NCBI GenBank assembly: GCA_964387645.1
Contig: CAYLYM010000006.1
Location: forward strand, 355-64,354
Direction of reading: 5' to 3'
Source of the DNA: an uncultured Calditrichaceae bacterium
GTDB lineage: Bacteria; Calditrichota; Calditrichia; RBG-13-44-9
Length of the DNA: 64,000 bases
This document shows positions 863-43,236 of the stretch, one piece after another; within the stretch, counting starts at the first letter, position 1; each line of letters opens with the position of its first letter. The notes below the pieces were generated by a model, which ran no database searches, had not been told where the DNA came from, and saw only the letters and a list, made by a program, of their open reading frames with translations. Position numbers and translations under genes: made by a program.

Positions 863-1780
863 GGTAATTAGAACTTCATTAGACCTTCAGGGCTCTAAAT
901 TTAACTGATTATCTTGTCTTTAGTTAAATAATAAAAAATTTCGTGAGTACCATGACTTTCTTGCTCACCGTTCTACTAACCGCTAAGCTCTTATCTTAAA
1001 TTTGGACTGTTCATAATTGTCAAGAATGAAAAACAGAGAGATGTCATCCTGGGCATATTTGAGTGAATACCACCATTTTTCCTTAAAAAATTTATACACA
1101 AATAAATTTCTTTATCCATCAATTTTATATTTTGCCGTTAATTTTTTTTACATTTTACAATAAATTAATTTTAATTCTTTCTAAACCAGTTGATGTAGTT
1201 GATATGGAGAAAAAAATAAATTTGCTCAAATTGTTGCTCAAAGGGGAGATTTGCTATATGTATAATTTTCATAGAAAAATTGTTGTCGAATATGAAAAAA
1301 TATTTTATAAAAGTGAGAAAGATTTTCTGTTTAAATATTTAAAAAAATTAATAAAACAGAAACTTCCAAATTTCTATTGACAAAATAAATCATTTATTAT
1401 ATACTGTAATAATAGAATAATTATATTTTTGAAGAAGTTGGCGAAAATACAGGGAAATAGTTTTTTTGATCTTGCTTGTTTTAATTTAACATTATTTTTA
1501 AAAGATTGATCTATCAATAATTTTTCAAACCTTTAGCTTAAAAAATATCGAGCGAATATCTAAGAAAAAAATATAAGTTAAAAATATTTATCGAATAAGA
1601 TTTGTTAATGAAAAGAAATTTAGTTATGTATTTTTGAATATATATTGTATATTCAATTATATATTAAAAATATTATTAAATTCTGAAAAATATATCGTTT
1701 AAATTGATTATGGGATAAAGATTAGTTTTATTAATTTTTACTTGTTTTTAACAGGTTTATAAATAATACAGGAGGTATGA

Positions 1781-3457
1781 ATGCAAGGAATTGAAAAAAG
1801 CCCTACTGGAATTAAGGGATTCGATGAAATAACACTAGGAGGTTTACCTAAAGAGAGACCAACTTTAGTTTGTGGAAAAGCAGGTTGTGGAAAAACTTTA
1901 TTTGCTATGGAATTTATTTATAAAGGTGCAGTAGAATTTAGAGAACCTGGCGTATTTGTTGCATTTGAAGAGACTGAAGAAGAACTGAAAAAGAATGTTA
2001 CAGCACTGGGATGGAACCTGGATAAGCTGATTGGTGAGAAAAAATTGATTATTGAACATATTCGTATTAATCCTTCAGAAATTGTGGAGACGGGAGAATA
2101 TAGCCTGGATGGCCTTTTGCTTCGTTTGAAGGCTGCGATCGATGAGATTGGCGCAAAAAGATTGGCAATTGATACTATTGAAGTTTTATTTAGTAGTTAT
2201 TCCAACAGTTTTATACTTCGAGCCGAAATACAGCGGCTATTTCGTTTTCTTAAAGAAAATAAGGTTACAGCCGTTATCACGGGTGAAATGGGAGATGGTA
2301 GACTAACCCGACATGGACTGGAAGAATATGTTTCGGATTGTGTGGTTTCTTTAGATCATTCTGTTGCCAATGGAATTGCTACACGCAGGTTACGGGTGGT
2401 AAAGTATCGTGGCTCTCGCCACGGAACCAATGAATTTCCGTTTTTTATTGAAGAAAATGGATTTTCCTTAATGCCAGTTACTGATCTGGAGATGGATTAT
2501 GAGGTACCTCATGAGAAAATTTCCACAGGAATTCCCCGCTTAGATGCCATGTTTGGAGGTGAGGGCTGTTATCGGGGTAGCAGCATTCTTATTTCCGGTA
2601 CTGCCGGAACAGGAAAGAGTACTTTGGCAGTTACTTTTGCAGATGCCAGTTGTCGCCGCCAAGAACCCTGCCTCTATATTAGCTTCGAAGAATCAGCAGA
2701 TCAAATCATTAGAAACATGCGTTCGGTTGGATTTGATTTGAAAAAACATATAGATAATGGCTTATTGAAATTTTACTCAACACGTCCAACCTTGATGGGA
2801 TTGGAAGAACATCTTTTCATGATACAGTCACAGATAGATAAATTTAACCCCAAGATGGTAATTGTTGATCCTATTTCAAATTTAGTATCCATTTCATCTC
2901 AACTGGAAGTGAAATGGATGTTTACCCGCTTAATTGATTTTATTAAAAGGAAACAAATCACAACTATCATGACTGATTTAACGGAACAGGATAGTTATTT
3001 CCGGGAAAATTCAACTGTGGGTATCTCCTCTCTTATTGATACCTGGATTTTCCTCAGGGACATTGAATCGGGAGGAGAAAGAAATAGAGGGCTTTATATA
3101 CTAAAAGCCAGAGGATTGAATCACTCCAATCAGATTAGAGAATTTCATATTACTTCAAAAGGAATAAAGTTCCTGGATGTTTATACCGGACCTGGAGGAG
3201 TTTTAACAGGTTCGGCCCGATTGACTCAAATGGTAAATGATAAATTAGCAGAACTTAAACGAAAATATGAAGTAAAAAATAAACAATTACAGTTGGAATT
3301 AATGCGTAAACAGATGGAATCCAGGATAGCTGAAATCAGGGCTGAATATGAAGCAAAAGAAGCAGAACTTAAACGTTTAATTGAACAAGATGAATTAAAA
3401 CAAAAAATTTTGGAAGATGCCAGAAAAGAAATGGCGGAACTTCGTAGAGCGGATTAA
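1781..3457 (+). CDS. kaiC: Circadian-clock-type ATPase KaiC (duplicated RecA-like CI and CII domains) with ~70 aa C-terminal coiled-coil extension
   Basis: Two Walker A motifs (GKAGCGKT, GTAGTGKS). Paired catalytic glutamates FEETEE and FEES. SS pair aligning with the KaiC S431/T432 phosphosites (GISSLIDTWIFL). Lys/Glu/Arg-rich heptad tail (ELKRKYEVKNKQLQLELMRKQ...AELRRAD). AGGAGG RBS 6 nt upstream. Confidence 0.9.
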   Translation: MQGIEKSPTGIKGFDEITLGGLPKERPTLVCGKAGCGKTLFAMEFIYKGAVEFREPGVFVAFEETEEELKKNVTALGWNLDKLIGEKKLIIEHIRINPSEIVETGEYSLDGLLLRLKAAIDEIGAKRLAIDTIEVLFSSYSNSFILRAEIQRLFRFLKENKVTAVITGEMGDGRLTRHGLEEYVSDCVVSLDHSVANGIATRRLRVVKYRGSRHGTNEFPFFIEENGFSLMPVTDLEMDYEVPHEKISTGIPRLDAMFGGEGCYRGSSILISGTAGTGKSTLAVTFADASCRRQEPCLYISFEESADQIIRNMRSVGFDLKKHIDNGLLKFYSTRPTLMGLEEHLFMIQSQIDKFNPKMVIVDPISNLVSISSQLEVKWMFTRLIDFIKRKQITTIMTDLTEQDSYFRENSTVGISSLIDTWIFLRDIESGGERNRGLYILKARGLNHSNQIREFHITSKGIKFLDVYTGPGGVLTGSARLTQMVNDKLAELKRKYEVKNKQLQLELMRKQMESRIAEIRAEYEAKEAELKRLIEQDELKQKILEDARKEMAELRRAD

Positions 3458-3476
3458 AAATTTTTGAGGTGATAGA

Positions 3477-3815
3477 ATGGTCAAGACAAAATCAACTCAG
3501 GATCAAAAGTCGGATAAATCAGATGAGTTTTATGAGTTAAGACTTTATGTTGTAGGACAAAGTGAAAATTCTTTAAGAGCGTTTAAAAATTTGAAAAATA
3601 TTTGTGAAGAATACCTGAAGGGTAGGTATTCTATAGAAGTGATTGATTTGTTGGAAAATCCACAATTAGCTAAAGACCACCAGATATTGGCAGTTCCCAC
3701 CCTGGTTCGGAAATTGCCTGAACCAATGAAAAAAATAATCGGGAATCTTGCTAATAAAGAGAAAGTCCTTGTGGGACTGGATCTGAAACCGATGGAATTT
3801 AAGGATAAAGATTAA
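3477..3815 (+). CDS. kaiB: KaiB (thioredoxin-like fold), copy 1
   Basis: 112 aa. KaiB-like core [14 protein letters not shown]...[12 protein letters not shown]. Lies immediately downstream of kaiC with its own GAGGTG RBS. Confidence 0.85.
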
Positions 3816-3838
3816 TCTAAAGCAAGGAAGGATCATTA

Positions 3839-4177
3839 ATGAAAAATGGAGAAAAAGAAATTCAAAATGTAGCGGCTGAATTTGAAAAAGCTTTGCAAAA
3901 ACAGGGAAAGTTATTTTATCGACTCAAGCTTTTTATCTCTGCTAATTCGCCAAGATCGAACAAAGCGATCTTGAATTTAAAATATATCTGCCAGACTTAT
4001 CTTGATGAAAAATATGAATTAGAGGTAATTGATGTTTTAAAAGAAAGAAGTAGTTTAAAAACCTATCACATTATAGCTATTCCGACTTTAATTAAAGAGA
4101 CACCTCTTCCAAAACGAAAGCTGATTGGAGATTTATCCAATAAAGAAGAAGTTTTATATGGATTAGGCATCAAATGA
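3839..4177 (+). CDS. kaiB: KaiB paralog, copy 2
   Basis: 112 aa. LKLFISANSPRS...IIAIPTLIKETPLP matches the same KaiB architecture as copy 1 but is diverged from it. Tandem to copy 1 and co-oriented. Confidence 0.8.
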   Translation: MKNGEKEIQNVAAEFEKALQKQGKLFYRLKLFISANSPRSNKAILNLKYICQTYLDEKYELEVIDVLKERSSLKTYHIIAIPTLIKETPLPKRKLIGDLSNKEEVLYGLGIK

Positions 4178-4196
4178 GCGAGGAGGAATTCTTAAA

Positions 4197-7103
4197 GTGG
4201 GGAATGGAAAAAAAACTCAATCTCATCTTGAAAAGGAGATTCAACGTTTGCAGAAAGAGTTGGGAGAAGCCACTTCAACTTTAAACGCCATAAGAGCTGG
4301 CGAAGTGGATGCCATCGTGGTACATGGTGATAAACAGACCCATGTATATACACTTAAAAGAGCTGATCAATCGTTTCTAACTCTTGTTGAGGAAATGTTG
4401 GAAGGGGCTGTAATTTTTGCATTAGATGGCACGATAATATATTGTAATTCAAGCTTTGCTGAAATGGTCGGAATGCCGGTGAAAAAGGTTATCGGTTCAT
4501 CGTTTTATCAGTTTGTGCTCCCTTCGAGAAAAATTGATATAGAAAAAACTCTGAAAAAAATTGATAAGGATGGATTGCAATTTGAAATGGAATTGAAAAC
4601 TGCGTTGGATAAGAATATACCTGCACTTTTATCCATTAAAAAGACAACCATTGAAAAGGAAGAATTGTTCACCACAACAATTGTTGATTTAAGCGAACAA
4701 AAAAGAAATGAGGAGATTATTGCACGTGGAAGATTGATAGAATCAATGTTAAAACAATCGCAAGAAGCGATTTTGGTTTGTGATGTTGAAGGGCGAATTA
4801 TCATGAGTAGCGAGCCAGCCAGAGAAATGGCCGGTAAAACCAACCTGAATCAATATTTCAAGAATGTTTTCCCCAATATTGTTTTAATGTTAGACGATCC
4901 TTCAGGTTCAGAAACAATTAAACAAATTCCTTTCTCAATCGATGATATTTTGCAAGGCAAATTTTTTTACAATATCGAAGGTAAATTTCAGCGCGGAGAT
5001 GGCAAAATCTATAATATTTTACTGCGAGCTCAAAGTATAAGAGATGAGAAAGATAATATAATTGGTGCTGTTGTTGGGTTTTCGGATATCACTCGGATTA
5101 AGAAAACTGAAAGTAAACGTGTGGCGCTATTTCAGATATCACATGCAGCTTTTTCTGCAGGTAATTTGAAGGAATTCTATTCCAAAGTGCATCAGATTGT
5201 TGGCAAAGTTTGTTATGCTGAAAATTTTTATATTGCCTTGTATTATAGAAATAAAAAAAGATTTGAGTTTGTATATGTTGTGGATGAATATGAGAAATCA
5301 CGCTTACCCAGTGCTCTGGCAGAGATTCTTATAAATAAGGTCACCCAAAAAAAAGAACCTTTATTGGCTTCAAAATCCGAAATTAAAAATTGGGTTTTGG
5401 AAAAAGGAGAGAAGTTTGAAGGAAAAATACCGAATTATTTTTTAGGAGTGCCTTTAAAAGTAAAAGATCAGCCCATCGGCGTTTTGGCTCTTCAGACTTA
5501 TAGGAATTGTGTGTCTTTCGATGAGGAAGAGATGGATTTCTTGAGAGTTATATCTGAACAGGTGGCAATGGCTATAGAGCGTATTCGGATAAATGAAGAA
5601 AATAAATTTCACAATACTGTTTTAACGTGGGTGCCCTATGGAGTTTTAATATTAGATCATACAGGAAAATTGGTCTGGGCTAATTCCACCTTTTGTCAGA
5701 TGATAGATTATTCAATGAAGGAACTCCAGGATGAATTTCCACCAATATATAAAGATTCTGTAAATTTTGGGCAACTTTTCGTTGAGATAGTAAAGTCTCT
5801 CGAGGAAAGTCAATCGTGGCAGGGAGAACTTGTTGTTTTAAGAAAAGATGGGAGTAATTTTCCTGCAGAAGCAATTTTTTCTCCAATAGAAAGAAATGGG
5901 AGTTATTTAGCAAGATATGTTGCCATCATACAAGACGTTTCTGAGAAACGTGAATTGGAACAACAATTTTTCCAGGCTCAGAAAATGGAGGCCATTGGCA
6001 AACTTGCTGGTGGTGTGGCCCACGATTTTAATAATATTCTCACCATAATTAATGGTTATAGCGATTTATTGTTGGCCAGATTAGATACGGATCATCCTTT
6101 TTACAAAGAAATATCTATGATCCGAAAAGCTGGGGAGCGGGCAAGCGGGTTGACAAACCAGCTTTTAGCTTTCAGCAGAAAGCAAATGATACGCCCCAGA
6201 AATCTTAACCTGAATACAATAATAAAAGACACAGAAAAAATGTTGAAGCGTTTAATAGGCGAAGATATTGAGCTTGTAACTCATCTAGATCCCGATTTAA
6301 ATGAAATTCACGTTGATCCCACACAGATTGATCAAATCATTATGAATCTTGCTGTAAATGCCAGGGATGCCATGCCCAAAGGGGGCAAACTAACTATTGA
6401 AACAAAAAATGTCGAATTAGACCAGAGTTATATCCAGAAACATGGAGAAGTTAAAGCAGGTTCTTATGTGATGCTTTCTATAAGTGATACAGGAATCGGG
6501 ATAGATAAGGAAACGATGCAACATATTTTTGAGCCTTTTTTTACAACTAAAGGTAAGGGAGAAGGAACCGGGCTTGGTTTATCTACTGTATACGGAATTG
6601 TAAAGCAAAATAATGGATATATTTGGGTTTACAGCGAGCCCGGCGAAGGTGCAGTTTTTAAAATCTATTTCCCAATAACTTCTAAAAAAGCTGGAGATGT
6701 CGAAGTCGAGAAAATTTCATCAGAAGAGTTAATTGGTAATGAAACAATTCTCCTAGCAGAAGATGATCATTGGGTAAGAGAATTAACAAAGTCCACTCTG
6801 GAAGCTTATGGTTACAAAGTATTGGAAGTAGAACGCGGTGATGAAGCGCTTAAAATTTGCAAAGAATTTAAGAATCCCATACATTTGCTGTTAACTGATG
6901 TAGTTATGCCTGGAATGAGTGGTAGCGAACTAGCTAAAAAAATATTAGAATATCATAAGGATATCAAAATTTTATATATGTCGGGTTATACCGATGACGC
7001 CATGATAAGATATGGGATTCGTGATAAAGAAGTAGAGTTTCTTCAAAAGCCTTTTTCTTCAAAAGTTCTTCTTGAAAAAGTAAGAAAGATATTGAATAAA
7101 TAG
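4197..7103 (+). CDS. Hybrid sensor histidine kinase: PAS-PAS-GAF-PAS sensor region, HisKA (H-box VAHDFNNILTII), HATPase_c (N-box NLAVNARDAM, G-box GTGLGLSTVYGIV), C-terminal receiver domain
   Basis: 968 aa ORF with a GTG start 10 nt after AGGAGG. Conserved H, N, G1 and G2 boxes. C-terminal REC with DD...D...K pattern (ILLAEDDHW...LLLTDVVMPGMSG). Co-oriented directly after kaiB2 with a 19 nt gap. Confidence 0.85.
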   Translation: MGNGKKTQSHLEKEIQRLQKELGEATSTLNAIRAGEVDAIVVHGDKQTHVYTLKRADQSFLTLVEEMLEGAVIFALDGTIIYCNSSFAEMVGMPVKKVIGSSFYQFVLPSRKIDIEKTLKKIDKDGLQFEMELKTALDKNIPALLSIKKTTIEKEELFTTTIVDLSEQKRNEEIIARGRLIESMLKQSQEAILVCDVEGRIIMSSEPAREMAGKTNLNQYFKNVFPNIVLMLDDPSGSETIKQIPFSIDDILQGKFFYNIEGKFQRGDGKIYNILLRAQSIRDEKDNIIGAVVGFSDITRIKKTESKRVALFQISHAAFSAGNLKEFYSKVHQIVGKVCYAENFYIALYYRNKKRFEFVYVVDEYEKSRLPSALAEILINKVTQKKEPLLASKSEIKNWVLEKGEKFEGKIPNYFLGVPLKVKDQPIGVLALQTYRNCVSFDEEEMDFLRVISEQVAMAIERIRINEENKFHNTVLTWVPYGVLILDHTGKLVWANSTFCQMIDYSMKELQDEFPPIYKDSVNFGQLFVEIVKSLEESQSWQGELVVLRKDGSNFPAEAIFSPIERNGSYLARYVAIIQDVSEKRELEQQFFQAQKMEAIGKLAGGVAHDFNNILTIINGYSDLLLARLDTDHPFYKEISMIRKAGERASGLTNQLLAFSRKQMIRPRNLNLNTIIKDTEKMLKRLIGEDIELVTHLDPDLNEIHVDPTQIDQIIMNLAVNARDAMPKGGKLTIETKNVELDQSYIQKHGEVKAGSYVMLSISDTGIGIDKETMQHIFEPFFTTKGKGEGTGLGLSTVYGIVKQNNGYIWVYSEPGEGAVFKIYFPITSKKAGDVEVEKISSEELIGNETILLAEDDHWVRELTKSTLEAYGYKVLEVERGDEALKICKEFKNPIHLLLTDVVMPGMSGSELAKKILEYHKDIKILYMSGYTDDAMIRYGIRDKEVEFLQKPFSSKVLLEKVRKILNK

Positions 7104-7234
7104 AATAAAAAACTCACCACGGCACACTTATTCTTTTTTAACAATTAAAAGGTTATATTTTAATTTATTATTTCTGCAATTAAAGGACCGATTGATCCTT
7201 CAATTAAGATGATGAGACTTTAACTGTCGAAAAA

Positions 7235-7271
7235 ATCGATAAATTTATCGATTTTGAATCTATAATCGATA
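7235..7271. promoter_or_regulatory. Perfect 18-bp palindrome ATCGATAAATTTATCGAT plus a third ATCGATA half-site 13 bp downstream; candidate operator
   Basis: Read directly in the 520 bp intergenic region between the kai/HK operon and rdgB. Confidence 0.3.
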
Positions 7272-7623
7272 AGAAGACTCATCCAATTATAAATTTTAGA
7301 AAACTTAAATTTTGTTTTAAGTTTATTATTTTATTCGTCTTAGATAAATGCACTTAAGTTATTTTGATATTTTTTTGATAAAAATCAGCAGAAAGAGAGA
7401 AAGAATACCAATATTGAAGTAAAGCGGAAGTTTTTTGAAAGTGGATATGCTTTTGATTAGCAATATTTACAAATCAAAAGTTTCTGTTTTTAATAGACTC
7501 TTGAAAGTATAAATAAACCGCTTTTTTAAAATATAGCATTGCTAACAAGGTAAATCTGCTTTATTTTCGATCACATTTTATTGCGAATTACTTTGAGGAT
7601 GGAAAAAATTAGCAAGGTAATTT

Positions 7624-8217
7624 ATGTTAAAGATAGTTGTTGCTACTGGTAATGAAGACAAGTTTAGAGAAATTCTGGATATTTTAAAAGAAGTGCCGGC
7701 AGAGTTTTTCTCATTAAAAGATTTTCCTGATATACCTGAGATCGAGGAAACCGGTATAAGTTTTACCGAGAATGCGTTGTTAAAGGCAAGAACGGTACAC
7801 AAAGCTACTGGTCTTTTTACCCTTGCCGATGATTCAGGTCTTGAAGTAGACGCATTGAATGGAGCACCTGGAATTTATTCTGCACGTTATGCTGGGCAAG
7901 AAAAAGATTATACGGCAAATAATGAAAAGCTATTGAGAGAAATGGAGCAACTTCCTCCAAAAATGCGAGGTGCCCAATTTCGATGTGTGGTGGCTTTAGT
8001 TGGGCAGAATTTTGAGCAAATCGTGGAAGGTGTGATTCGAGGCCGAATTATTGATGAATTGCGCGGGAGTGCCGGATTTGGCTATGATCCCCTGTTCGTC
8101 CCCGAAGGTTACAACAAAACTTTTGCTGAGTTGGGTGAGGAGATCAAAAATAGGATCAGCCACCGTGCCAGAGCGTTTCATAAAGCGAAAGAAATTCTTC
8201 TGAACTTATGGGAATAA
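7624..8217 (+). CDS. rdgB: Non-canonical purine NTP pyrophosphatase (dITP/XTP pyrophosphatase, RdgB/Ham1 family)
   Basis: KIVVATGNEDKFREI N-terminus, FGYDPLF motif, about 197 aa. Confidence 0.85.
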   Translation: MLKIVVATGNEDKFREILDILKEVPAEFFSLKDFPDIPEIEETGISFTENALLKARTVHKATGLFTLADDSGLEVDALNGAPGIYSARYAGQEKDYTANNEKLLREMEQLPPKMRGAQFRCVVALVGQNFEQIVEGVIRGRIIDELRGSAGFGYDPLFVPEGYNKTFAELGEEIKNRISHRARAFHKAKEILLNLWE

Positions 8218-16032: not shown

Positions 16033-17589
16033 ATGGCAAAAAATACTATCCTCTGGGTAGATGATGAGATAGAATTTTTACAACCACATATATTGTTTTT
16101 GAAAGAAAAGGGTTACGAGGTTATTACCACTACTAACGCCGATGATGCTATTGAAATGATTCGAAATGGTGTTTTTGACCTGGTTTTACTGGACGAAATG
16201 ATGCCTGGTAAAGATGGTTTAACTGCACTGGGTGAGATTAAGGAGCTGAATCCGGCCCTTCCGGTAATTATGATTACCAAAAATGAAGAAGAGACTCTGA
16301 TGGAAGATGCCATCGGTGCAAAAATAGATGATTATTTAACCAAGCCGGTGAATCCCAGTCAGATATTGATGGTATGTAAAAAGCATTTGGAATTTCACGA
16401 TATTTCACAGAAACGCTTGACGGAGGCTTCTTCACAAAAGATTCGGGAAATTGCTTTAAAATTGATGGAACCGCTAAATTTTAACGATTGGATTGACATT
16501 TACAGAAAATTGGTTGAATGGGACCTGGAGTTAGACCGGGTGAGCGATCAACAGATGCGCCAGGTTATTTACGATCAGCGTCGGGAATGTAATGTGGAAT
16601 TTGGAAAATTTATTGAAAGAAACTATATCGATTGGCTCCATCAAAAAGAAAATCGGCCAGAGTTGTCGATCGATATTGTGAAGAATTACGTTCTACCTGA
16701 AATGCAGGCGGGGAAAAAGGTAGTATTTGTCGTGATCGATTGTTTGCGTCTGGATCAATGGTTGACTTTAGAACCTTTCTTTTATCCATTCTTTAATATT
16801 TCAAAAACTTTTTATTACTCTATACTTCCCACGGCAACGCCTTTTTCACGTAATGCCATTTTTAGCGGGTTATTTCCATTGGAAATCGAGCGCCGTTATC
16901 CCGATATCTGGGCTCAGGGAGAAGATGATGATTACAGCCGCAACCGCTACGAGGACAAATTGCTTTACGATCAGTTACGTATTCTTGGTCTGAAACTTCA
17001 GTCATCTCCCGGATATATTAAAATTTTAAATTCGGAAGACGCCAAAAGTCTGGAAAAGAATTTGCCAGGTTATCTGGATTCATCATTATTGAGTATTGTA
17101 GTAAATTTTGTGGACATTTTGGCGCACAGCCGTTCGGATGTGCCTATTTTAAAAGAAATTGCTCCTGATGAATCTTCTTACCGCTCGCTGACTCGATCGT
17201 GGTTTGAACATTCTGCAATTTATAATGTCTTTAAGATTTTAGCCGATCAGAATGTGACTATTATTCTGACCAGCGATCATGGCAGTATTCGAAGTTTGAG
17301 GGGAACAAAAGTTATCGGTGATCGCGAAACCAGCACCAATTTGCGCTATAAATACGGGCGAAATTTGAAAGTAAATCCAAAACATGCCTTGTATATCAAG
17401 AACCCGAAAGATTTTAAATTACCTCAATCCAATTTCAATGTTAATTATATCATCGCTAAAGAAGATTACTATTTTGTTTATCCGACCAATTATCATAAAT
17501 ATCTGGCCTATTACCGCGATAGTTTTCAACATGGCGGGGTTTCGATGGAGGAAATGATTCTACCACTGGTGAAGTTGCAGCCTAAATAG
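16033..17589 (+). CDS. PorX-like response regulator: N-terminal CheY-like receiver fused to a PglZ (alkaline-phosphatase superfamily) effector domain
   Basis: REC motifs ILWVDDE...LVLLDEMMPGKDG...K. C-terminal PglZ-type metal-ligand motifs VFVVIDCLRLDQW and TSDHGS. Confidence 0.8.
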   Translation: MAKNTILWVDDEIEFLQPHILFLKEKGYEVITTTNADDAIEMIRNGVFDLVLLDEMMPGKDGLTALGEIKELNPALPVIMITKNEEETLMEDAIGAKIDDYLTKPVNPSQILMVCKKHLEFHDISQKRLTEASSQKIREIALKLMEPLNFNDWIDIYRKLVEWDLELDRVSDQQMRQVIYDQRRECNVEFGKFIERNYIDWLHQKENRPELSIDIVKNYVLPEMQAGKKVVFVVIDCLRLDQWLTLEPFFYPFFNISKTFYYSILPTATPFSRNAIFSGLFPLEIERRYPDIWAQGEDDDYSRNRYEDKLLYDQLRILGLKLQSSPGYIKILNSEDAKSLEKNLPGYLDSSLLSIVVNFVDILAHSRSDVPILKEIAPDESSYRSLTRSWFEHSAIYNVFKILADQNVTIILTSDHGSIRSLRGTKVIGDRETSTNLRYKYGRNLKVNPKHALYIKNPKDFKLPQSNFNVNYIIAKEDYYFVYPTNYHKYLAYYRDSFQHGGVSMEEMILPLVKLQPK

Positions 17590-42531: not shown

Positions 42532-43236
42532 CTAATTTTGGGATTCTTGCAGTTTTTTCAACTCTTTTTCAATGTCCAATAACAAGTCCTTGTATGCTCC
42601 TTCTTTAACTACTTTCATTTCTCCACTTTGTACAAGATTGTGTAAGGTCCGAAGCACCTTGTTGATAAATTCGACTGTTTGCTTTACAAAATTCTTCAGC
42701 CGAATGGCATCGTCTGGATCTTTTTCGTTTATCATCTGGACCATAGTGTATAAGGGAGTCAAAGAATTATTAATATAATGGCTCAGGGTAACCAAAATTC
42801 GCTGGACTTGCTTCAAAGCCCGTAACTGGTTCTCCCGTTCTATGAGTTGATTCTGTAGGTCTAGTAATCGTTGAATTGATCGCATTTTTAATTGTAATTC
42901 GGGTGGTGTGTAGGGTACATACAGAAACTCGTCTGCCCCGAGTTCAAAAGCAGTCAGATGTTGTAAAAATAAATCTTTTTGAACAATACAAATAAGAGGG
43001 ATGTGTTTCAAATTTGGCTCGCTTTTTAAACGCTCACACACTTCAGCGGCTTTTTTTTCAACCCCTTCTAAATCTAATATAACCATGCGGTATTTAGAAT
43101 CAGTATATAGTTTGAAAAATGCTTGTTCGTAATCATTTAATACTTCAACCTGAAATCCTTCCTGGTTTAAATCAACTTTGAATGACTCAGCCAGAGATTG
43201 ATTTTGAGTTACAAGTAAAATCATTTTTTTATCCAT
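42532..43236 (-). CDS. Response regulator-like protein: receiver domain plus C-terminal coiled-coil/helical output
   Basis: MILLVTQNQ...RMVILDLEGV receiver-like core and a heptad-rich C-terminus. No HTH recognised. Confidence 0.6.
   Translation of the reverse strand: MDKKMILLVTQNQSLAESFKVDLNQEGFQVEVLNDYEQAFFKLYTDSKYRMVILDLEGVEKKAAEVCERLKSEPNLKHIPLICIVQKDLFLQHLTAFELGADEFLYVPYTPPELQLKMRSIQRLLDLQNQLIERENQLRALKQVQRILVTLSHYINNSLTPLYTMVQMINEKDPDDAIRLKNFVKQTVEFINKVLRTLHNLVQSGEMKVVKEGAYKDLLLDIEKELKKLQESQN

Follow-up and report, generated by a model that had tools for sequence, protein, structure and literature searches.

Described relatives of the locus analysed here are the KaiBC systems of Rhodobacter sphaeroides (PDB 8DBA and 8FWJ) and Rhodopseudomonas palustris, in which kaiC and kaiB share an operon with a PAS-domain histidine kinase (PMC4794148). 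In the study of the R. sphaeroides proteins, an hourglass timer run by the ATP/ADP ratio was described, with fold-switched KaiB binding to the ADP-bound CI ring of KaiC; the coiled-coil extension of its KaiC, typical of the KaiC2 subgroup, permits autophosphorylation independent of KaiA (10.1101/2022.11.28.518275). A gene-context survey in 2011 recorded kinases or GGDEF/EAL proteins after kaiC-kaiB clusters. Work on the timers of R. sphaeroides, R. palustris and Legionella assumes that KaiC operates with one KaiB. Here we describe a kai locus of an uncultured Calditrichaceae bacterium (contig CAYLYM010000006.1), analysed in one stretch of 64,000 nucleotides, referred to as the window. In this locus, kaiC is followed by two KaiB genes, kaiB-a and kaiB-b according to their position, and by a gene for a hybrid sensor histidine kinase. 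The two KaiBs represent two ancient orthologous groups that are kept together in fixed order across Bacteria and Archaea.

The locus belongs to the known KaiC2-type family with a kaiC-kaiB-PAS/histidine kinase arrangement. The window KaiC scores 377 bits with the Pfam KaiC family and 702 bits with NF006799 of NCBIfam, and falls under the cut-off of the cyanobacterial KaiC equivalog, TIGR02655. Among solved structures, it comes closest to R. sphaeroides KaiC (8DBA, 626 bits), which it matches over residues 2-541 of 558, including the C-terminal coiled-coil extension of about 60 residues. The residues S416/S417 within 'GISSL' align with the phosphosites S413/S414 of the R. sphaeroides protein, so that the pair is Ser-Ser and not Ser-Thr. 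No KaiA was seen among the open reading frames scanned. Judged by its sequence, the window would carry a KaiBC timer or energy-state module that is KaiC2-type and R. sphaeroides-like. What sets the locus apart from the described model systems is its second KaiB class: systems of the R. sphaeroides type are described with one KaiB, whereas the window has two KaiB genes of different classes and most of the relatives sampled also have the second type.

Two ancient KaiB groups in a fixed order

An earlier note on this DNA had described two divergent tandem KaiB paralogs of 112 residues each, and this description is borne out. Both proteins cover 81 of the 82 positions of the Pfam KaiB model PF07689 (cut-off 27 bits), KaiB-a with 94.4 bits (E-value 3.4e-27) and KaiB-b with 76.1 bits (E-value 1.8e-21). 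The C-terminal strings quoted in the note are present, among them AIPTLIKETPLP of the second copy, and the N-terminal segments do differ. Over 87 aligned residues without any gap, the two proteins are 46% identical and 70% similar. The near-identity that was to speak against a functional difference is thus not found, because the copies have strongly diverged. Both proteins carry the P-T-L, P-x-P and (I/L)IG(N/D)L(A/S) motifs and are encoded beside a full-length two-domain KaiC, and the switch prolines (P63, P70 and P72 of Thermosynechococcus elongatus KaiB, Te numbering below) are 100% conserved in both classes. KaiB-a has an invariant 'VLVGLD' C-terminal segment and a low-complexity N-terminal tail; KaiB-b ends directly after 'GLGIK'.

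Neither protein passes the models of the cyanobacterial circadian KaiB equivalogs, with scores for KaiB-a and KaiB-b of 109.5 and 67.9 bits for NF006798 (KaiB equivalog, cut-off 110) and of 100.6 and 64.9 bits for TIGR02654 (cut-off 145.3). Because of the near miss with NF006798, proteins like KaiB-a are annotated merely as 'KaiB family'. Both are stand-alone proteins, and no KaiB-like domain is present in the downstream kinase. In sequence, the second copy is not like the N-terminal domain of SasA (SasA-N): the SasA model NF006800 gives 27.9 and 28.3 bits for the two KaiBs, against a cut-off of 342, so that the similarity of KaiB-b to SasA is marginal and the same as that of KaiB-a.

Homologues at 65-75% identity to KaiB-a number in the thousands and come from Proteobacteria, Desulfobacterota, Cyanobacteria and methanogens. 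For KaiB-b, about 255 word-sharing matches were obtained, the best of them about 50% identical and most with the N-terminal extension. A scan of species-representative genomes with the single KaiB-b sequence found no relatives; an alignment was needed as the query, and the KaiB-b-type alignment yielded 80 loci. At 66 of these, the gene immediately upstream of the KaiB-b-like one encodes a KaiB with a higher score to KaiB-a, and kaiC lies upstream of that gene. Such a-then-b loci span at least ten phyla of Bacteria and Archaea, the hosts including Nostoc, Aulosira, Leptolyngbya, Methanoperedens, Methanoregula, Methanosarcina and Bathyarchaeia as well as Bacteroidales, Chitinophaga, Spirosoma, Acidobacteriota, Desulfobacterota, Nitrospirae and Chloroflexota. 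Metagenome contigs were searched with the KaiB-a-type alignment, which gave 80 further loci, 69 of them with enough downstream DNA to be assessed. The a-then-b order is present in 67 of the 69, comprising 57 outright cases, nine in which the longest-frame start of the b-type gene overlaps the a gene, and one in-frame fusion; a b-type gene is absent only at L109 and L116. The pair had been taken for a local peculiarity and is instead a widespread, ancient pair of paralogs.

The 66 genome loci and the window together provide 67 tandem pairs, or 134 sequences, for the identity and neighbour statistics. The a-b identity is 53.5% within a locus and 52.6% between loci, while the mean identity reaches 72.9% among a-type and 62.9% among b-type proteins. 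The nearest neighbour belongs to the same positional class for 134 of 134 sequences, and position-1 and position-2 KaiBs stand apart in a neighbour-joining tree. Hidden Markov models of the two classes (A and B), built without the window sequences, assign KaiB-a of the window to class A (152 versus 124 bits) and KaiB-b to class B (116 versus 90 bits). R. sphaeroides KaiB scores 138 bits with A and 120 with B, and T. elongatus KaiB 119 and 110; KaiB-a thus groups with the characterised metamorphic KaiB of R. sphaeroides. Lpp1115 of Legionella leans to the b class (85 versus 74 bits) and stands beside the window KaiB-b in the neighbour-joining tree, a grouping that may be artefactual because both are long branches and share only about 41% identity. 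The distribution as a whole suggests that two specialised KaiBs, and not one, serve most non-cyanobacterial Kai timers.

The gap between the a and b genes has an estimated median of about 20 nucleotides; overlaps of 1 or 4 nucleotides are seen in 12 of 126 pairs. Some loci have just one KaiB, of the a or the b type. Three consecutive KaiB genes occur at six loci of Methanoperedens, Methanomicrobiales and metagenome contigs (L011, L018, L077, L094, L122 and L163), with an extra, more divergent a-like copy ahead of the a-b pair. A profile search of 1.84 billion representative proteins ranked proteins with two KaiB domains highest. Single-chain fusions with two complete domains, always in the order a-b, are found at L095 (4996-5609) and in the proteins P0252-P0255 and P0261; in the L095 fusion, a linker stands where b-type proteins have their N-terminal EEFExA extension. 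Many further two-domain entries look like frameshift-garbled merges of adjacent genes and were not counted. The fusions provide weak but consistent evidence for joint action of the two proteins.

Several KaiB copies in one genome have been noted before (PMC10808063, PMC5520375), and 'KaiB2' is known as the main non-cyanobacterial KaiB type, with G88 conserved (PMC5520375). In the literature accessible as full text, subscription-only papers being outside the scope, we found no description of a fixed tandem a/b KaiB pair with class-specific features, although specialists may have met the arrangement in genome browsers.

Sequence differences between the two classes

The b-type proteins carry an N-terminal motif, (S/T)TEE-F-E-x-A-L, placed 7-14 residues ahead of the β1 strand. 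Among 133 b-type proteins, 71 have its FEx[AS] core; none of 80 a-type proteins does, their N-terminus being only a low-complexity K/E/S/T tail. At the position of Te A41 in the β2 strand, Ser, Arg or Thr of the a-type is replaced by Glu (77%) or Asp (14%) in the b-type. The a-type Leu-Lys at Te L48-K49 corresponds to Tyr (88%) and Gln (92%), and the a-type Leu at Te L80 (100%) to Met (67%).

Conservation is also distributed differently. The sequence entropy of the whole switching half is 0.72 bits in a-type and 1.17 bits in b-type proteins, with values of 0.97 and 1.82 bits for Te 50-62, and of 0.72 and 1.37 bits for Te 82-93. Only in the β2 strand, among the segments compared, is the b-type the more conserved of the two (0.21 bits versus 0.82 bits). 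KaiB-a is therefore most constrained in the C-terminal fold-switching half, the part in which two folds have to be encoded. Overall, KaiB-b is the faster-evolving protein, with a near-invariant β2 strand and a class-specific EEFExA segment at the N-terminus that is predicted to be helical. In cyanobacterial fold-switched KaiB, the C-terminal half contacts the B-loop of KaiC and β2 is the docking edge for KaiA and for the pseudo-receiver of CikA (PMC6378743). The constraint on the a-type would fit two folds together with the KaiC interface, and that on the b-type one fold together with a partner at the β2 edge. Taken together, the conservation patterns appear to fit a division of labour between two KaiBs.

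Predicted fold states of KaiB-a and KaiB-b

AlphaFold2 was run with paralog-specific alignments of 35 a-type and 35 b-type sequences. The model of KaiB-a has a strand at 19-25, a helix at 30-47, a strand at 51-57, helices at 63-67, 74-77 and 84-94, and a strand at 98-102. This is the ground-state topology, of which the C-terminal strand 98-102 is the hallmark (mean predicted local distance difference test score, pLDDT, of 60). The model of KaiB-b begins with a helix at 3-21 that includes the N-terminal motif region (pLDDT 54-67), and continues as strand-helix-strand-helix-strand-strand-helix, the fold-switched, thioredoxin-like topology (mean pLDDT 69).

Comparison of the models to the PDB with Foldseek gave the same division. 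For the KaiB-a model, each of the top 17 matches is a ground-state KaiB crystal (4KSO, 2QKE, 1VGL, 1R5P and 1WWJ among them), and the E-values of fold-switched structures are about four orders of magnitude worse. Fold-switched KaiBs take all of the top 10 places for the KaiB-b model, including 4KUN, 8FWJ_M, 5JYT, 5JWR, 5JWO, 5JWQ and 5N8Y; SasA-N structures (E-value of about 1e-4) and thioredoxins follow. The best structural match of KaiB-b is Lpp1115 of Legionella, which crystallised in the fold-switched state (PDB 4KUN), with a target-normalised TM-score of 0.85 and a root-mean-square deviation of 1.7 Å. Lpp1115 differs from KaiB-b in having Ala and Ser at the Te Gly89 and Ile88 positions, where KaiB-b has Gly and Tyr, and is without the EEFExA N-terminal extension.

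A conserved sensor module beside kaiB

The 968-residue kinase encoded after kaiB-b consists, by Pfam, of an N-terminal module (N-module) followed by PAS, GAF, PAS, HisKA, HATPase_c and REC domains. The N-module is composed of a coiled coil, the segment 'AIRAGEVDAIVV' and the first PAS domain; across the loci, it carries the segment 'AIRxGEVDALVV'. The open reading frame directly after the last kaiB matches kinase residues ~5-180 in about 77 of the 80 loci from genomes and in most of those from metagenomes, so that the N-module stands next to kaiB in more than 100 loci (L007-L166). It is kept whatever output follows, be it a kinase, a hybrid kinase or none; in Bacteroidales it is part of a stand-alone protein of 235 residues. 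The consensus from 115 loci reads L..E..ELR.RL.EAEETL.AIR.GEVDALVVS...G.QVYTL.GAD.PYR.L.E.M.EGA.TL..DG.ILYCN..FA. A sequence search of the PDB with the N-module returned generic PAS matches only, beginning at residue ~55, and no solved relative for the first 50 residues. A protein-homologue search with kinase residues 1-175 returned no matches.

A proposed division of labour and its alternatives

We propose that KaiB-a is a metamorphic regulator of KaiC and that KaiB-b is a fold-biased, ring-bound coupler to the sensor N-module. As a whole, this reading is tentative, and we assign it a probability of roughly 45%. KaiB-a would rest in the ground-state fold and switch slowly; once switched, it would bind the ADP-bound CI ring of KaiC and promote dephosphorylation, as R. 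sphaeroides KaiB does. KaiB-b would be biased to the binding-competent thioredoxin-like fold and occupy the same CI ring, with its β2 edge, its N-terminal helix or both engaging a partner, most likely the conserved N-module of the downstream PAS sensor. By engaging the N-module, KaiB-b would couple the state of KaiC to the kinase. It may also nucleate the binding of KaiB-a, as SasA does for KaiB in cyanobacteria. We infer all of the binding partners here, and the direction of signalling as well. The tight a-b spacing, the a-b fusions and the conservation of the N-module beside kaiB were counted in favour of a coupling of these components.

There are precedents for the individual steps. SasA or fold-switched KaiB recruits KaiB cooperatively (10.1101/2020.06.17.158394), and SasA-N (PDB 6X61) resembles the proposed KaiB-b in concept, having a fixed fold-switched shape on the same CI site and aiding the assembly of a slow-switching KaiB; SasA-N is, however, fused to its own kinase, while KaiB-b is a separate protein. 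The multi-PAS protein KidA of Synechococcus elongatus binds fold-switched KaiB by means of N-terminal PAS domains (PMC9478674). Here, at the level of the genes, a PAS-containing N-module adjoins kaiB, whereas KidA is not encoded next to kaiB. The cyanobacterial KaiB_TV-4 (PDB 8UBH) is an extra KaiB stabilised in the fold-switched state, in a genome that also encodes a ground-state-favouring KaiB (PMC10808063). It differs from KaiB-b in that, as far as reported, it does not stand in tandem with the switcher, and its similarity is 32 bits to KaiB-b and 54 bits to KaiB-a.

A number of observations weigh against the proposed reading. At the mean pLDDT values given above, both AlphaFold2 models are of low confidence, and their C-terminal halves score 51-69. 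The Foldseek score includes sequence, and KaiB-a is the more similar of the two to the cyanobacterial ground-state crystals. Moreover, default ColabFold/AlphaFold2 gives the fold-switched state even for the ground-state-favouring KaiB of T. elongatus (PMC10808063). Because AlphaFold2 defaults to that state, the fold-switched call for KaiB-b is weak evidence, and more can be learned from the ground-state call for KaiB-a. Gly89 and Asp91 favour the ground state in cyanobacterial KaiB; the Gly89 equivalent is kept in 95-97% of both classes (97% of the b clade), and the Asp91 equivalent in 86% of the a class and 73% of the b class. The position of R. sphaeroides I68 is hydrophobic in both clades, including most b members, and the b clade consensus at the I68, 88, 89 and 91 positions is Leu, Val or Leu, Gly, and Asp. 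By the Gly89, Asp91, proline and I68 determinants, the b clade thus looks switch-competent and not locked. It should also be mentioned that the PAS sensor is still found at loci where just one KaiB, of either type, is present (see also PMC4794148), so KaiB-b is not required for the sensor linkage, which speaks against a strict adaptor role.

The KaiB-b of the window is, in addition, an atypical long-branch member of its class. It has L67-K68 where the class has Tyr-Gln (88% and 92%), Ala35 in place of the Gly after β1 (98%), and Arg70 where the class has Pro (80%). At the switch-related positions, Lys92 replaces the Leu or Phe of the class at R. sphaeroides I68, Tyr is found at I88, Gly108 is retained at Gly89, and Gly110 replaces Asp at Asp91, with the protein ending two residues after Gly110. 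Of the substitutions expected to destabilise the ground state, namely a residue other than Gly at Gly89, a small or polar one at Ile88 and a charged one at I68, the window KaiB-b thus has the charged one but neither of the other two. The window KaiB-a has G100 and D102 at the Gly89 and Asp91 positions. In the tree, KaiB-b neighbours sequences of Legionella, Chitinophaga and Spirosoma, possibly as a result of long-branch attraction. Single-site determinants (Te K58, I88, G89 and D91; R. sphaeroides I68, V83 and N84) were considered as a basis for calling one copy locked and were rejected, as they do not cleanly separate the classes. The idea of the earlier note that one copy is a switcher and the other is locked therefore survives in part: AlphaFold2 and the closest solved structures do split the two proteins, but the second copy and its clade keep Gly89 and the clade mostly keeps Asp91. 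That KaiB-b is fold-biased is a reasonable prediction from the models; that it is fold-locked is not established. In published work, KaiBs with a fold-switched prediction and KaiBs with a ground-state prediction are mixed across the tree of the family (PMC10808063); the supplement of that paper provides a KaiB alignment and tree without per-sequence state calls.

Both paralogs could instead be metamorphic binders of KaiC-CI that perform the same job at different set-points (switching rate, temperature range or ATP/ADP threshold), providing two time constants or a wider range with neither acting as a dedicated adaptor. We consider this unlikely, yet it deserves the most weight among the alternatives for the pair itself. 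The retention of the switch prolines, of Gly89 and of Asp91 in both clades supports it, as do the single-KaiB loci of each type and the PTL..P.P..IIGDLS block, a KaiC contact in cyanobacteria (PMC6378743), that both clades keep. Schmelling et al. (PMC5520375) have further argued from the conserved G88 that KaiB2-type proteins are not in a fixed fold-switched state. A change of set-point alone, however, leaves the near-invariant β2 strand and the EEFExA helix of the b-type unexplained; the b-type is relaxed exactly in those segments that change secondary structure, and the AlphaFold2 models are in different states. Rather doubtful is an obligate hetero-oligomer in which KaiB-a and KaiB-b form one functional KaiB unit, be it as a heterodimer in solution or as subunits that alternate on the KaiC ring. 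The fixed order with its tight spacing, the nearly constant co-occurrence of the two types and the full-length a-b fusions on several unrelated sequences would all be expected of such a unit. The fusions are nevertheless rare, with about six clean cases among 1.8 billion representatives, and frameshifts garble many of the two-domain matches, which may have arisen as artefacts of assembly. Neighbouring KaiBs do not contact each other in the published KaiC-KaiB complex of R. sphaeroides, and single-KaiB systems work in R. sphaeroides and R. palustris according to the literature.

With still lower probability, KaiB-b is a competitive antagonist, constitutively competent for binding, that fills CI sites without stimulating dephosphorylation and so sets the threshold for KaiB-a. 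Its fold-switched model and the competition of SasA with KaiB for the same site at high concentration (10.1101/2020.06.17.158394) agree with this possibility, and co-expression from one operon would fix the ratio of KaiB-a to KaiB-b. An antagonist would not obviously need a conserved β2 edge or N-terminal motif, though, and the a-b fusions point to cooperation rather than competition. Adjacency is the one feature that suggests a recent local duplication, with the second copy redundant or decaying, and we regard either version as exceedingly improbable. The 46% identity of the copies, the equal identity within and between loci and the perfect separation of the classes contradict a recent duplication, and a pseudogene is contradicted by the intact b-type reading frame, which is conserved in more than 130 loci with motifs of its own.

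The division of labour between KaiB-a and KaiB-b may be extended to a broader and more speculative proposal, which is probably not correct in full. Most Kai systems outside the cyanobacterial KaiABC would then be built on a core of three proteins, namely KaiC2, a KaiB-a that is metamorphic and a KaiB-b that is constitutively fold-switched, the last docking the sensor N-module onto the KaiC ring via β2 and EEFExA. KaiB-b would be the stand-alone ancestral counterpart of the output logic of SasA-N and of the CikA pseudo-receiver, and the fold-switched-predicted pockets in KaiB phylogenies would largely be b-type proteins.

The individual genes are ordinary members of their families, and it is the conserved pairing that recasts 'KaiBC' systems: nearly every close relative sampled has two distinct KaiBs in fixed order, followed by a sensor with the conserved N-module. 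If the resting folds differ, nature has already split the functions of the slow switch and the always-ready binder into two genes. This would, if true, offer a handle on why fold switching evolved, on the role of the KaiB variants stabilised in the fold-switched state that AF-Cluster identified, and on the route by which, without SasA or CikA, the state of KaiC is passed to two-component signalling. Genera that can be cultivated (Nostoc, Chitinophaga, Spirosoma, Methanosarcina and Massilia) have the pair, and the proposal is therefore testable.

Gene layout and other features of the window

The four genes form a tight co-directional cluster (Table 1), with intergenic gaps of 19 nucleotides between kaiC and kaiB-a, 23 between kaiB-a and kaiB-b, and 19 between kaiB-b and the kinase gene. 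A Shine-Dalgarno-like purine run precedes both kaiB-a and kaiB-b. The best sigma-70-like promoter match, TTGACA-17-TATACT (11 of 12 positions), lies at 1377-1405, about 375 nucleotides upstream of kaiC, and overlaps an open reading frame of 82 codons. The scan for sigma-70 promoters and terminators at 900-7700 was uninformative, with fewer promoter-like sites than in shuffled sequences. The 82-residue reading frame itself (1132-1380, forward strand) is located between a PAP2 gene and kaiC, has no Pfam match and is also called on sister contigs.

Table 1. Positions of the kai genes and their notable segments in the window
Feature	Position	Strand	Basis
kaiC, 558 residues, KaiC2 / R. sphaeroides type, two RecA-like KaiC domains	1781..3457	+	Pfam KaiC, NF006799, 8DBA
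KaiC C-terminal coiled-coil extension, about residues 490-558	3248..3454	+	alignment to the tail of R. sphaeroides KaiC (8DBA)
kaiB-a, position-1 type, 112 residues	3477..3815	+	Pfam KaiB, class model
kaiB-b, position-2 type, 112 residues, divergent member of the second KaiB group	3839..4177	+	Pfam KaiB, class model
KaiB-b N-terminal extension, 25 residues, class motif as AAEFEKAL	3839..3913	+	motif comparison
Hybrid sensor histidine kinase, 968 residues	4197..7103	+	Pfam domains
Kinase N-terminal module, residues 1-180	4197..4736	+	conservation across kai loci

The identical four-gene locus was found on several independent metagenome contigs, and the representative of the KaiC sequence cluster bears the annotation of a Bacteroidota MAG. 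On two sister contigs, L002 and L003, which are near-identical and from the same population, some of the genes are called in two parts: kaiC of L002 as 301 + 220 residues (1883-3509), the kinase of L002 as 608 + 250 residues (4249-6824), and the kinase of L003 as 398 + 490 residues (3690-6412). Both kaiB genes are intact on these contigs. The split genes may be either assembly errors or natural disrupted variants.

No Hpt protein was noticed in the window. The remaining genes of the window are ordinary chromosomal housekeeping genes. Two proteins could be candidate phosphorelay partners of the hybrid kinase: a REC-PglZ response regulator encoded 9 kb downstream of the kai cluster (16033-17589, forward strand), and a 234-residue protein with a weak REC match encoded 35 kb from the cluster (42532-43236, reverse strand).

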